From Escherichia coli (lineage in GTDB: Bacteria; Pseudomonadota; Gammaproteobacteria; Enterobacterales; Enterobacteriaceae): DNA of 64,000 bases. The stretch's first letter is position 1; every line of letters starts with the position of its first letter. The stretch lies in NCBI RefSeq assembly GCF_044324785.1, contig NZ_CP172127.1; one strand, given 5' to 3'. Shown here piece by piece: positions 19,235 to 39,740 of this stretch. The notes beneath the pieces were generated by a model, which saw nothing but the letters and a program-made list of their open reading frames with translations, ran no database searches and was not told the DNA's origin. The translations under genes and the position numbers were made by a program.

Positions 19235-19259
19235 ATTATGTACACCCTTATGTACACGG
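19235..19259. repeat. left boundary direct repeat (candidate attL core)
   Basis: ATTATGTACACCCTTATGTACACGG matches 39716-39740 at 22 of 25 positions; contains tandem TGTACAC. Confidence 0.45.
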
Positions 19260-19683
19260 TTTTTTCGGGTGCTTTGGTCAGAAGCCATTGCCTACATCCC
19301 TCACGATCGAGGTGTGTAACCATGTTCAGGCTTGTTGTCCTGCGCGCGCGTATTGCTCGTGAAATTGCTGTACCCAATAGTGATGTCCGAAAAAACCTCC
19401 GTTCTCACATGAAACAGCCATATGCAACTGGTAACTGAACAGACTGGTAGACCGTTCGTTCAGTAAATACCTGATATTTTCGCCAACGAGAAATTGCGTT
19501 GGCTGGCAGGGTGCAAATTTGCACGATGGACTAACCCATTGATTCTTTCGAAAACCCCCATTGGGGGAAAAGCCTAACCCATTGGTTTTCCCACAATCCT
19601 CAATTTGAGGAATGTACCTAAAACCATTTTTATAGCTCCGATCCCTTCAAAGTGAGGGGTAATTTGCCAAAACAGAGAGAGCA

Positions 19684-19971
19684 TTACTGTCTCTGGCAAT
19701 CTTTATCGCGATAACGCCTGAAGTACCCTCTCGCTTCCTCATCCATACCAAGAGCCGAATGAGTCCGCTTAACTGCCTGTCTTAAATCTCCGAATCTGTC
19801 TGTAGTTGCTGGTGGGCGTGCCGCCTTACGGATACATTCAGAGCGTCTGTTTGCTGCATGTTCACGTTCTTTATCGCCATCTGCCAGCATCATGACTTCT
19901 GCCCATCGTGCGGCAGCTCTCCGGTATAGCCCTTTTGACTCCAGCTCTTCAGCTTTCCTGTCCCTTATCAT
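19684..19971 (-). CDS. PerC-family transcriptional regulator-like protein
   Basis: 95-aa basic protein; N-terminus ...AEELESKGLYRRAAARWAEVMM resembles PerC/Pch family as I recall it; adjacent to iteron cluster. Confidence 0.4.
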   Translation of the reverse strand: MIRDRKAEELESKGLYRRAAARWAEVMMLADGDKEREHAANRRSECIRKAARPPATTDRFGDLRQAVKRTHSALGMDEEARGYFRRYRDKDCQRQ

Positions 19972-20004
19972 TTCTGCCTCTCAGATTATATAGATAAGCA
20001 AAAA

Positions 20005-20132
20005 GGTGTTGGTTCAGTTGGTTCAGTTGGTTCAATTTGTAAAGATCGTTGTTTTTATTGTGTTTTTTCTGAAATGTTGAACCAACATCAACTCATTTTG
20101 AACCAACACAGTCCAGCTCTGAACCAACAACA
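20005..20132. repeat. iteron cluster 1 (GTTGGTTCA x3 then TGAACCAAC x3), ori-like
   Basis: Three tandem GTTGGTTCA at 20008-20034 and three inverted copies at 20075-20132; near-identical in reverse complement to cluster at 29756-29871. Confidence 0.55.
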
Positions 20133-20230
20133 CAGCGATAGCTTTGTGATTGGTCCGTTATTTTCTGGTTGATATTTGAGCGTATAACAGTGTTATACAG
20201 TGGTATACTGTATGGATATTACTCACTGAT

Positions 20231-20674
20231 ATGGTCTTTGCAATGAGCAAATCTAATCTGGTCGCGTTCCGCATCCCATCTGAATTGCAGGATGAGTTTA
20301 ATCGGTCTGTTCTCGCTTCTGGAGGGGATAAAACCTCCTGGCTTGTTGATGCGATTCGCATGAAGCTGGGACAGCCGGAAAAGTCTATTGATTCACGAAT
20401 GCTTGGGCTGGTGGAGCGCATGGAAAAAGCCGCTGCGTCGCTTATTGCCGGAAAGCCGAACATCCCACCAAAGCTATATAACGAAACGGCAGTTATAAAG
20501 ATCATTGCCGATACCATCCGACAGGGATTTGATAATGGGCGTGTGATAGCGGAACGGCTCAATGAAGCAGGCTATCAAACAAAAGCTGGTAAAGCATGGG
20601 ATAAAGACATTTACAGCGCGTGGAAGCGTCAGGGAAGCAATGCTGAAAAGTTATCAGTGGCTCTAAGAATGTAG
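20231..20674 (+). CDS. putative DNA-binding regulator with N-terminal ribbon-helix-helix-like fold
   Basis: 147-aa ORF; N-terminus LVAFRIPSELQDEFNRSV...WLVDAIRMKL has the beta-strand/helix pattern of RHH repressors; preceded by overlapping palindromes at 20181-20205. Confidence 0.4.
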   Translation: MVFAMSKSNLVAFRIPSELQDEFNRSVLASGGDKTSWLVDAIRMKLGQPEKSIDSRMLGLVERMEKAAASLIAGKPNIPPKLYNETAVIKIIADTIRQGFDNGRVIAERLNEAGYQTKAGKAWDKDIYSAWKRQGSNAEKLSVALRM

Positions 20675-20690
20675 CCCTATATTTTGATTT

Positions 20691-37126: not shown

Positions 37127-37329
37127 CAGGCCACCTTCCCGCGGCGTTCTGCCAGCCAGTTGTGAATCTCAACCGCATCAAACGCAGTTATTTTTTCTCC
37201 CAGCTTTACTGGACGTGGTAGTGAACCGTTTCTTACTTTACGGTCGATGGTGGATACACTAACGCCCAGCAATTCAGCCAGGCGAAAGCGTCTGATATAG
37301 CCTTTTGTAGGGATAGTGTCGATGTTCAT
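37126..37329 (-). CDS. alpA: AlpA-family phage transcriptional regulator/excisionase-like protein
   Basis: 67-aa protein with HTH LAELLGVSVSTIDRKVRNGSLPRPVKLG typical of AlpA/Xis-like proteins; near the integrase. Confidence 0.75.
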   Translation of the reverse strand: MNIDTIPTKGYIRRFRLAELLGVSVSTIDRKVRNGSLPRPVKLGEKITAFDAVEIHNWLAERRGKVA

Positions 37330-37435
37330 GATTCCCGTAACCTCTTAGCGATAGTTGTTGCTTCGTTACGAGAAATCTAGCTGTATAGATATACAATGAA
37401 AAGGTACTGTAATTTTGCAGTACCTCTATAGTAAG

Positions 37436-38386
37436 TTAACTATCCACTTTGCCATTTGCCGCAGATCGTAGATGTTTAAGAATTACATCTTCATTAGTTA
37501 TCATAAGTGGTGGAACTTCGTCTAAATGACGAACAAGACAGTCACGCCACTTCTCAGGGCTTATTTCTTTCCTTTCTCCCCTGCATTCATTTGGATACTT
37601 ACTAAGTATATAAATTGCAGATTTTAATAGTTTCTCCCTATTGACTGCGTACCGTTCGGCACGTTTATTAACTTTTAGCGTATTTATATCATTGGATAAC
37701 TTGTTTGCGGATGGTTTGTGCATGGGTCTGTCATAAATATATTTTCCTCCATTTATAAGAAGATTGTATTCATAGTCAGTTATATACATTTTGTTTCGGC
37801 TTATTTCATACCAGCCGTCAATATAAAAAGCTCCGATTTCATAATTATTCGATTTGCTAAACTCGTCACATCTCGGAGGTATCAGTTCGCATACAGAGAT
37901 CTCCCAATCATCCCATTCTGATAGCTCCCGCTCATCGTTATCTATGAACGCAGGCGGAATTGCTAATAGACCGCTCCATCTTTCGATATCTCTTTCATCC
38001 TTCCCAACATTGTATCGCTCTATAACTGAGAAATGTTCTGATTTGTATGAAAACCTCATAAAATACATATAGTTATCGCTATTTTTATAATCAAGTGATG
38101 ATAAGCCATATGATTCGAGATTATCTGCCTTATTGCTCAGATCAAGGAGATAATTCTCATGTGCTGCTTTTGTATCTATATGAAAAATACTATCTGTTTC
38201 AACTTTAAGTAATTCTGGCTCGGCATCTTCATTTTTTGGGTAATGGTAAAACAATTCAATAGGTGGAATTTTTATACATATTTCTAAAACCCCAATTGCT
38301 GCATAGTGTATTAAATCGGATACTTCACATCCGGCCAGTTTGGCTGCTTTATCCAAAGAATAATATTTATGCGCAGGTAATTTCAT
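37436..38386 (-). CDS. hypothetical protein in an AT-rich segment, int-proximal cargo; possible N-terminal HTH
   Basis: 316-aa ORF with Lys/Tyr/Asn/Glu-rich composition; N-terminus YSLDKAAKLAGCEVSDLIHYAAIG resembles an excisionase-type HTH; no catalytic motif recognised. Confidence 0.5.
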   Translation of the reverse strand: MKLPAHKYYSLDKAAKLAGCEVSDLIHYAAIGVLEICIKIPPIELFYHYPKNEDAEPELLKVETDSIFHIDTKAAHENYLLDLSNKADNLESYGLSSLDYKNSDNYMYFMRFSYKSEHFSVIERYNVGKDERDIERWSGLLAIPPAFIDNDERELSEWDDWEISVCELIPPRCDEFSKSNNYEIGAFYIDGWYEISRNKMYITDYEYNLLINGGKYIYDRPMHKPSANKLSNDINTLKVNKRAERYAVNREKLLKSAIYILSKYPNECRGERKEISPEKWRDCLVRHLDEVPPLMITNEDVILKHLRSAANGKVDS

Positions 38387-38404
38387 TATGAATCTTTCCT
38401 CTCA

Positions 38405-39658
38405 TCATGCTCTGATTGGCGTTACGTTGTAGTCTTTTCCGCTTTCCAGTGCCACCAGCAGATCTGCCCACTGTGCTAGTGCTGCTTTACGCTCATCAAA
38501 ATACTGATGACGGTTATAAATCCCCTCTACGCCCTTAATGCGATGATTGAGGCATCGTTCCGCCACGACAGGATCAACACCCAATGCTGCTAAATGAGTA
38601 CGTGCGGTGCGTCGGAAGTCGTGAATCGTGAAATTAGGCACATCCGGAATTTCGGCGCGAACCTTAGCCAGTGCTACGGGTAAAGTGCTTTCCTGAATAT
38701 GTGGGATCATTCTGTTTTGCATCTTCCTGGCCGGAAGCACCCATGCGCTATTACATGAAAAGGTGTGTAGCTCTCTCAACCATTCAACGGCTGGGGAAGG
38801 TAGAGGTATATCAATAGGGTCTCCGTTTTTGCTGCGTTCTTCCGGCAAATGCCATACCGCACCATCTAAATCAAACTCTTCCCATCGTGCGGCGCATAAC
38901 TCCATCTTACGAACGCATAGTGCCAGCAATAGTTTAAATGTCAGTTCGTTTTGGCGGCTGAATCCTTTTGCGGTGCGCATAGCCTCGAATAGTCTGATAA
39001 GCTCATCGCGAGTTAGCCAACGGTCGCGGGAAACCTCTTTACCACCAGCATCAGATACTTCAAACGCTGAACAAGGGTTTATCTCCAGAGCGTGGCGTTT
39101 TATCCCATAGTCAAAGATACGGCGTGTCCAGCGCAATACATCTGTTGCTATCGTTGGTGCTCCTCGGTCAACGATACCTTTCAACATGTCGTCAATGTGG
39201 CGTGGCTTAACGTCCTCTACCTTCATATGCCCAATGCAGGGGTTAATATCCTTATCAATTCTCCGGCGAAGGATATCGGGATGTTTCCATCTCGGAAGTA
39301 TCTGGCGCTCGAAGTATTCGGAGGCCAGATCTGAAACACGCATGGCGTTTTTCTCAGCCTCCATTTTTGCCAGTGCTTCAGCTTTTCGTTCCTGTTTCTC
39401 TGCTGCTACGTCATAGCCAAGAGCAACTCTGGCTGACAGCTCTTTTGCTGTTTCTCTGGCTTTTGATAGTGACAGTTCGGAGTAAGAGCCTATAACCATA
39501 GCCCGCTGCTTTCCTGCGAGCTTATAGCGGAATCGCCAGAACGGGACTGTGTAGTTTTTGGGGTAGCAAATATAAAGGCCGTTGCCGTCTGCCTTGCCAT
39601 CAAATCTGTCTCCCGCCTTTATCCATGCGCGGATCTGCATATCTGTGAGTTTTGGCAT
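38405..39658 (-). CDS. int: P4-type tyrosine integrase
   Basis: 417-aa translation from MPKLTDMQIRAWIKAGDRFDGKADGNGLY; C-terminal catalytic region with HDFRRTARTHL and Tyr near the C-terminus; listed ORF start over-extended. Confidence 0.85.
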   Translation of the reverse strand: MPKLTDMQIRAWIKAGDRFDGKADGNGLYICYPKNYTVPFWRFRYKLAGKQRAMVIGSYSELSLSKARETAKELSARVALGYDVAAEKQERKAEALAKMEAEKNAMRVSDLASEYFERQILPRWKHPDILRRRIDKDINPCIGHMKVEDVKPRHIDDMLKGIVDRGAPTIATDVLRWTRRIFDYGIKRHALEINPCSAFEVSDAGGKEVSRDRWLTRDELIRLFEAMRTAKGFSRQNELTFKLLLALCVRKMELCAARWEEFDLDGAVWHLPEERSKNGDPIDIPLPSPAVEWLRELHTFSCNSAWVLPARKMQNRMIPHIQESTLPVALAKVRAEIPDVPNFTIHDFRRTARTHLAALGVDPVVAERCLNHRIKGVEGIYNRHQYFDERKAALAQWADLLVALESGKDYNVTPIRA

Positions 39659-39715
39659 TGCGAATACCTGAATATCGAATATGGGTGTGTACATAAAGCA
39701 ATGTACATGAAAGTC

Positions 39716-39740
39716 ATTATGTACACCTCTATGTACACGC
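39716..39740. repeat. right boundary direct repeat (candidate attR core), upstream of int
   Basis: ATTATGTACACCTCTATGTACACGC; two further TGTACA copies lie 20-40 nt to its left (39689-39710), arm-site-like. Confidence 0.45.

Follow-up and report, generated by a model that had tools for sequence, protein, structure and literature searches.

The stretch of Escherichia coli chromosome analysed here (64,000 nucleotides of NZ_CP172127.1, assembly GCF_044324785.1; hereafter the window) carries an insert of about 20.69 kb, or about 19.4 kb without the insertion sequence IS2 that sits within it, which we assign with good confidence to the phage-inducible chromosomal islands (PICIs) of the EcCIMP1 type, as a P4-related phage satellite residing in the end of yicC. 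EcCIMP1 is the PICI of E. coli MP1 (Pick, Stadel and Raivio, ISME J 2025, PMC11773190); it excises only in the presence of the P22-like prophage Kapi1, needs int and alpA, and is transduced by Kapi1 at low frequency (PMC11773190). An earlier examination of the letters of the window (the sequence-only reading) had proposed a satellite or a cryptic element, and not a prophage, a view that our analysis supports, and what had been an unexplained island can now be identified as a satellite whose ends, origin, immunity RNAs and cargo are defined. Judged from its sequence, the element is a new member of a known satellite family at a known site, and the pattern of its late cassette would extend ideas that are already established.

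An EcCIMP1-like satellite in the 3' end of yicC

Alignment of window positions 27839-37136 to the EcCIMP1 locus of MP1 extends over 9316 bp at 97.7% identity. The shared core runs from the first ~50 codons of a homologue of P22 gene 20 through homologues of genes 7 and 14, a leader gene of 53 amino acids (aa) that we call o53, the putative replication origin and the primase gene, and continues through a set of small genes, the ash region, the DUF4222 gene and the AntA/AntB gene to the gene for a 143-aa protein. Gene order is the same in the two islands, both of which also carry a PerC-family gene, and their sizes are close (19.96 kb for EcCIMP1, ~19.4 kb here without IS2). They differ in site (tRNA-Thr for EcCIMP1, the yicC 3' end here), in the distal part of the late region, where the gene 20 homologues align only over their first 187 residues (48% identity) and BLASTP gave no match for the gene 16 homologue, in what follows gene 16 (a 232-aa putative lipoprotein in EcCIMP1, a SieA-like gene here), in cargo, and in the presence of IS2 in the window element.

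The ends of the element were placed by alignment to genomes that lack the insert. Gene order in the window is ligB, yicG, dinD remnant, element, yicC, rph and pyrE, and an empty-site allele exists in K-12 and in 4192 of 5426 complete E. coli genomes, in which a synthetic empty-site query is contiguous; the remaining genomes are not all occupied, because some simply lack dinD. The K-12 sequence is followed up to window position 19167 and resumes at 39847; the final 12 bp of yicC occur in two copies. The alignments with empty-site genomes thus put the insertion point in the last codons of yicC, at its 3' end, and not in the dinD-yicC intergenic region where it had been located; the ends proposed with that location, 19235 and 39740, belong to a 24-bp repeat and lie ~60 bp and ~110 bp inside the true ones. 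The block is contiguous from the dinD remnant to yicC, as described earlier, and is mostly, rather than entirely, on the minus strand. ARAGORN found no tRNA gene in the whole 64 kb, in agreement with the sequence-only reading, and this non-tRNA site is not new for PICIs, since reference PICIs integrated in yicC have been mentioned before (preprint 10.1101/2022.07.18.500453).

Comparison with N3 (the closest empty-site strain), strains N12 and E57 and one Enterobacter locus defined an att identity block, TTATTCGATRTT(CT)GGATCTG, whose 21-bp form, TTAYTCRATRTTCTGRATCTG, covers the final six codons of yicC together with its stop. The left copy, attL (19156-19174), is the leftover yicC 3' end and lacks the CT that is present in attR and in the canonical left copy of E57. 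The right copy, attR (39847-39867), provides the last yicC codons with synonymous changes, and the YicC C-terminus QIQNIE is unchanged because the element-supplied codons differ only synonymously; the element restores the end of yicC after insertion there by its tyrosine integrase. Just inside the ends lie five exact copies of TATGTACAC, the only ones in the window, which are probably integrase arm sites: two at 19237-19257 (plus strand; left half of the 24-bp repeat) and three at 39687-39738 (right half), the 24-bp repeats themselves starting at 19235 and 39716. An element-borne, bidirectional terminator-like hairpin (39787-39810) separates int from yicC. On the other flank dinD is mostly deleted, 177 bp (18725-18901) standing in place of 724 bp of K-12 sequence, a deletion probably unrelated to the satellite since N3, with its empty site, has IS200/IS605 genes beside the same remnant.

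The gene content follows the published four-zone plan of Gram-negative PICIs (Integration, Bro, Replication, Late), for which the capture of late genes has also been described (PMC10111431). The integrase gene (38405-39658, minus strand; likely start MPKLTD at 39658, longest open reading frame (ORF) to 39742) is intact and encodes the P4-type tyrosine integrase that had been proposed, with three domains (Arm-DNA-bind_3, Phage_int_M and Phage_integrase) and with candidate catalytic motifs VRKME, HDFRRT, LNH and IYNRH recognised by eye in the translation. The AlpA-like regulator of the sequence-only reading was likewise confirmed, as a 67-aa AlpA-family regulator or excisionase (37126-37329, minus) that matches PF05930 at 2.5e-8. 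Between the two genes lies an orphan ORF of 316 aa (37436-38386, minus) in DNA of 37% G+C, with no match in Pfam, PHROGs, PADLOC or NCBIfam; this slot varies by strain, a 216-aa gene being found in others, and the ORF is a candidate accessory or defence gene. The Bro zone (35674-37126, minus) comprises a DUF4222 gene (35674-35856), an AntA/AntB antirepressor-family gene (35849-36682) and the 143-aa gene (36695-37126). No informative match to the 143-aa protein, or to proteins of 147 and 125 aa, came from PADLOC, NCBIfam, PHROGs or Pfam.

Adjoining the Bro zone is an Ash-family ORF (34613-35680, minus), which we equate by inference with P4 eta, a Bro-network gene, and which holds two RNA genes upstream of the replication genes. 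One is a C4 antisense RNA, a relative of the P4 CI immunity RNA (35072-35159, minus; RF01695, 79.5 bits against a threshold of 45), and the other an isrK RNA, a relative of P4 seqA that ends in an intrinsic terminator (35222-35299, minus; RF01394, 67.1 bits against 50); both exceed the Rfam gathering thresholds and cover the full models. P4-type RNA immunity elements of the CI-like and seqA-like kinds thus appear to be present, with their function predicted from these matches. In the Bro genes of PICIs, hits to these two profiles mark relatives of P4 CI and seqA, and CI-dependent termination is overcome when eta is translated from an upstream late promoter (PMC10111431). That the ash ORF might be a spurious frame over two RNA genes was considered and dropped, P4 CI lying within the real gene eta (PMC10111431).

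Next come six small minus-strand genes (32637-34620; 123, 113, 200, 73, 87 and 64 aa) that overlap end to end, as expected from the translationally coupled run claimed earlier, and then a 919-aa primase/replicase (29894-32653, minus). The zinc ribbon, Toprim and P-loop attributed to this protein were all found (Zn_Ribbon_Prim, Toprim_3, and DUF927 with the P-loop); its likeness to P4 alpha is confined to the N-terminal ~355 residues, which are 33% identical, and the C-terminal half is DUF927, not the P4 alpha helicase. Immediately downstream of the gene lies a putative replication origin (29758-29868), in which three plus three inverted GTTGGTTCA iterons surround an A+T-rich spacer. A second cluster 9.7 kb away (20008-20128), with GTTGGTTCA in three direct and three inverted copies, is an inverted copy of the first, and the two together hold 12 of the 13 exact copies of this sequence in the window. 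Two inverted iteron clusters recall the P4 ori and crr, the second cluster here resembling crr.

Placed beside known systems, the element shares with Gram-negative PICIs the order of zones, an integrase gene that points inward, AlpA, Bro-network genes with C4 and isrK matches, an origin placed after the primase, a Late zone made up of late genes taken from prophages, and the yicC target. It has the int, alpA and pri-rep genes in one direction, the size of about 10-20 kb and the att site of its own by which such islands are recognised. It departs from them in its Late zone, which consists only of genes for proteins ejected with the DNA and a chaperone-like gene and is devoid of capsid, terminase and head-tail genes. 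The comparison with P4 is more divided. The designation P4-like holds for the parts concerned with integration, regulation and replication (integrase type, AlpA, an alpha-like primase domain, two iteron sites, and CI-like and seqA-like RNAs in an eta-like gene), and fails for the P4 hijacking genes, which had no match among the proteins scanned against PHROGs; the core nearly matches that of an island with a P22-like podovirus helper. In terms of the SatelliteFinder definition of P4-like elements, integrase, AlpA and alpha primase are found and psu, delta, sid and epsilon are not.

We therefore consider it very improbable that the element is a true P4-family satellite dependent on a P2-like myovirus helper. 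Such a satellite would readily account for the P4-type integrase, the 33% identity of the primase N-terminal region to alpha, the paired iteron clusters like ori and crr, the C4 and isrK RNAs and AlpA. It would not account for the DUF927 half of the primase or for virion genes of podovirus type, nor for the use of the P22-like Kapi1 by the nearly identical EcCIMP1, and no PHROG match to sid, psu, delta or epsilon was obtained in a scan of the 20 proteins from the integrase to the SieA-like gene and two cargo proteins, with the ImmA/IrrE and PerC proteins outside the scan. These features point instead to a podovirus as the probable helper of an EcCIMP1-like island.

A late cassette of P22-type virion genes

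The sequence-only reading had noted that capsid, terminase and tail genes are missing, which is literally true and extends to lysis genes, but PHROG searches revealed four intact virion-associated genes of P22 type, so that the element departs from the PICI rule of having no phage structural genes. In order of transcription on the minus strand these are homologues of gene 14 (DUF2824, head morphogenesis; 153 aa, 28670-29131) and of the ejection protein genes 7 (225 aa, 27999-28676), 20 (473 aa, 26578-27999) and 16 (701 aa, 24473-26578), with PHROG E-values of 3e-66, 1e-69, 2e-111 and 2e-180 (the set as a whole matching PHROGs 598, 917, 770/29117 and 651). The segment corresponds to 14-7-20-16-sieA of phage P22 (NC_002371), with the same order and orientation and a convergent sieA. 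It differs in protein sequence (56% identity for gp7, 38% for gp20 and 30% for gp16) and in its context, being preceded here, within a satellite, by a promoter specific to the satellite and by the 53-aa gene.

The cassette genes are free of stop codons in four elements (those of the window, N12, MOD1-EC7003 and EcCIMP1), and the ratio of nonsynonymous to synonymous polymorphism (pN/pS) is 0.08-0.29 for the homologues of genes 7, 14 and 16. Among phages, the gene 16 homologue has its nearest relative in N7 and HZ41, at 67% identity, and Sf6-type phages match short stretches around gene boundaries at 95-96%, which suggests from sequence similarity an ongoing exchange with phages. As a separate observation, the gene 20 homologue is the sole cassette gene in which amino-acid changes outnumber silent ones between close relatives (9 versus 2, and 4 versus 1), counts too small for a conclusion.

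Leading the cassette is o53 (29148-29309, minus), a conserved gene whose product had no match in PHROG, Pfam or PDB sequence searches. Its structural model (pLDDT 86) has an extended N-terminus and two helices, and the best Foldseek match, FitA, reached a TM score of 0.57 but an E-value of ~10, which is not significant; a ribbon-helix-helix fold is possible on this model, as a guess. Upstream is a promoter region kept across genera (29343-29394, minus) in which TTTCAT-N5-GCAA is followed by a second copy overlapping the -35 position and then by TATAAT. The -35 itself is poor, a scan with the sigma-70 consensus found no strong promoter upstream of o53, and a terminator-like hairpin lies between the origin and the promoter.

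At the distal end of the cassette, convergent with the gene 16 homologue as in P22, is a plus-strand gene for a 204-aa SieA-like superinfection-exclusion membrane protein (23840-24454). Its product is 29% identical to P22 SieA over 108 residues (E = 7e-7), with a common RYPGEA motif, has four or five hydrophobic segments, and matches PHROG weakly (4.4e-4). P22 SieA blocks injection, and P22 mutations that escape it reportedly map to gp16 and gp20. Going by this resemblance, the SieA-like protein probably protects a cell that carries the island against incoming P22-like phages, and its gene is a concrete candidate for exclusion of the kind reported for EcCIMP1, though EcCIMP1 has a different gene in that position. 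The 232-aa protein encoded there (6632-7330 of the EcCIMP1 locus, L003) has a lipoprotein-type signal, LAGC, and no PHROG match, and is a candidate for the superinfection immunity of EcCIMP1.

This immunity bears on a different function for the cassette, in which the satellite ejection proteins would act against P22-like phages by poisoning their virions or their entry conduit. EcCIMP1 does add superinfection immunity against Kapi1 with no known defence system detected in it (PMC11773190), and PADLOC found nothing convincing in the window element besides a CapP-like peptidase. Kapi1 titres from induced lysogens are, however, unaffected by EcCIMP1 (PMC11773190), and in the window element the SieA-like gene is a simpler candidate for exclusion, which leaves an anti-phage role of the ejection proteins quite unlikely.

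Reading the cassette as part of an EcCIMP1-like satellite, we can outline a cycle whose regulation, excision, replication and packaging steps are modelled on EcCIMP1, other Gram-negative PICIs and P4. In the integrated state, a short transcript from within the ash (eta-like) gene would stop at the isrK/seqA-like terminator and give rise to a C4/CI-like RNA that silences the replication genes. Once a helper prophage of the P22-like kind goes lytic, alpA would be switched on and the element would excise; the primase would then fire the adjacent iteron origin, with the second iteron cluster 9.7 kb off. Concatemers would be headful-packaged into helper capsids, two ~19.4-kb copies (without IS2) roughly filling a 40-kb head. 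The products of satellite genes 14, 7, 20 and 16 would be loaded into these capsids, such that the DNA conduit of a transducing particle would be at least partly satellite-made.

Distribution and mobility of the element and its cassette

The family is common in E. coli. The junction of primase, origin, o53 and gene 14 homologue occurs in 239 of the 5426 genomes, at several chromosomal positions, and the integrase of the window element is carried by 336 genomes. Three other occupied yicC sites that were inspected (N12, 2013C-3033 and E57) all hold PICI-like elements, of which those of 2013C-3033 and E57 differ from that of the window. The E57 element (locus L073, 24409-32120) has a DUF5906 primase, o53 with homologues of genes 20 and 16 and without 14 and 7, and a death-on-curing toxin gene. 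The late cassette is modular, because E57 joins o53 and the gene 20 and 16 homologues to a different primase.

Beyond E. coli, one genome per species was scanned. Integrases 83-88% identical adjoin the yicC 3' end in ten loci, from Kosakonia, Enterobacter, Pantoea, Erwinia, Serratia, Rosenbergiella, Chimaeribacter, Rouxiella and one record titled Chryseobacterium. This last (CACSKA010000004.1, locus L008, titled Chryseobacterium sp. 18061) shows an enterobacterial-type yicC locus and a satellite primase 78% identical, and is probably a contamination or a mislabelled assembly. Relatives of the primase were found in ~54 Enterobacterales loci, with a backbone of int, 143-aa gene, AntA/AntB, ash and primase common to varying degrees, and o53 in 24 loci outside E. 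coli, where the next gene mostly follows immediately, often with overlapping stop and start codons. The promoter region ahead of o53 is also conserved across genera, with two TTTCA-N5-TGCAA repeats.

The gene behind o53 changes from locus to locus. In ten of the 24 it encodes a tape measure protein, usually with a 108-aa partner, and in five a lytic tail or tape-measure-transglycosylase protein; an internal virion lysozyme protein (two), a baseplate hub (one), a podovirus ejection protein set as in E. coli (one) and a small-terminase-like gene (two) make up the other recognisable cases, three being unclear or at a contig end. We considered that the tape measure genes might come from flanking prophages or from prophage late genes in which the satellites were embedded; they lie inside the element in two loci with clear att repeats (L018 in yicC and L013 at the tRNA-Thr core), and several other loci yielded no repeat. 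Directly after the tape measure genes of five loci (L015, L020, L025, L032 and L040) come conserved genes for proteins of 144-146 aa with an N-terminal GNPxGR motif. These were tried as counterparts of SieA and rejected, as they are not membrane proteins. The motif is one that we take to be typical of a small-terminase-like family, in which case these loci would hold a packaging function that has no counterpart in the E. coli ejection-protein versions.

From this pattern we put forward, tentatively and with somewhat more doubt than belief, that a PICI-type lineage across Enterobacterales has an exchangeable late cassette of promoter, o53 and entry-conduit proteins that travel with the DNA, by which satellites build virions with delivery proteins of their own. 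A precedent exists in the PLE satellites of Vibrio, which encode their own tape measure, chaperone and hub and build them into chimeric tails, and tmp genes have been noted in other satellites (PMC11838301); a tape measure gene in a satellite was still called notable by a preprint of December 2025. The likeness to PLE lies in satellite-encoded stand-ins for the DNA-delivery and tail-core proteins of the helper. PLE is, in contrast, an unrelated element with a myovirus helper and chimeric virions, whereas the counterparts carried here are those of podovirus gp7, gp20 and gp16, whose loading into virions is a prediction. If the proposal is correct, satellite-made delivery proteins would be a general strategy that includes podovirus helpers rather than a peculiarity of Vibrio PLE, and the window element would represent its podovirus form, in which a sieA gene was captured as well. 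Such proteins could then pass SieA-type injection blocks and allow entry into helper lysogens, and could open a broader set of recipient cells. Satellites of the tape-measure type would escape the detection programs in present use, for which a tail gene rules an element out; SatelliteFinder forbids tail genes in PICIs.

Several points weigh against the reading of the window element as an EcCIMP1-like satellite with a cycle of this kind. The 2 bp (CT) lacking from attL fall within the segment in which, from the polymorphic positions, the crossover must lie, and their deletion may impair excision. N12 has the same CT-less attL, full-length attL matches in PA45B and E118 span 70 nt as here, compared with 72 nt in E57, which has the full block, and this sharing fits, as far as the sequences tell, the inheritance of an immobilised copy. 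Int and AlpA are only 29% and 36% identical to those of EcCIMP1, and because of this divergence the inducing signal may differ. No helper prophage lies within the 64-kb window, the rest of the genome being unseen. No small terminase gene was found in the element, and comparison with the Kapi1 genome at word size 9 gave no DNA match to its terminase or late-promoter regions; a pac-like or qut-like late-promoter match sought in this way was discarded, the gene 14 and gene 7 regions alone having matched. The pN/pS of the gene 20 homologue is ~1.2-1.3, on just 5 to 11 differences. For EcCIMP1 itself, transduction is very low, and Pick et al. list the corresponding genes as 'DNA transfer' and suggest a role in packaging or morphogenesis (PMC11773190). 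The present mobility of the window copy is uncertain.

Some of these points would suit an immobile composite, in which a decayed P22-like prophage fragment (14, 7, 20, 16 and sieA) has joined a P4-like island remnant and been retained only because cargo such as SieA, PerC and the ImmA/IrrE pair benefits the host. The ejection block and sieA do form a contiguous piece of a P22-type late region, and the 2-bp deletion in the left att block, the inserted IS2 and the lack of a terminase gene and of a pac-like match agree with decay. A composite of this kind is nonetheless improbable: the same junction from primase to gene 14 homologue recurs at several sites among the 239 genomes, experiments have mobilised EcCIMP1, whose core is the same, the genes are intact with low pN/pS, and the o53-led design returns across genera with other virion proteins within att-bounded elements. 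An EcCIMP1-like island in the yicC end is the reading that we retain.

Cargo and neighbouring loci

The left part of the element carries its cargo. A gene for an ImmA/IrrE metallopeptidase (21072-21560) whose best match is the PADLOC CapP model (4.9e-25) is followed by that for a 125-aa hydrophobic protein (20691-21068), both on the minus strand. The pair may be a two-gene toxin or abortive-infection module, and IS2 lies ~70 bp upstream. This IS2 copy (21632-22954, minus) is a strain-specific insertion that disrupts no coding sequence and is bordered by a 5-bp duplication, AAAGG. Nearest to attL is a gene for a PerC/ANR-family regulator (19684-19971, minus), a family that represses virulence genes (PMC11773190).

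Two further loci of the window lie outside the element. Between gltS and recG, a 288-aa ORF (9098-9964, plus strand) with no NCBIfam match fills an 857-bp stretch where strain KKo009 has just 180 bp. Between pyrE and slmA, a 1.3-kb insert (42262-43559) that is absent from three other E. coli strains contains an ORF (42546-43517, plus strand) for a 323-aa retron-type reverse transcriptase, which scored 226.7 bits, just below the St85-family cut-off of 235. The pyrE-slmA position is, we presume, the one at which retron Ec107 was described.

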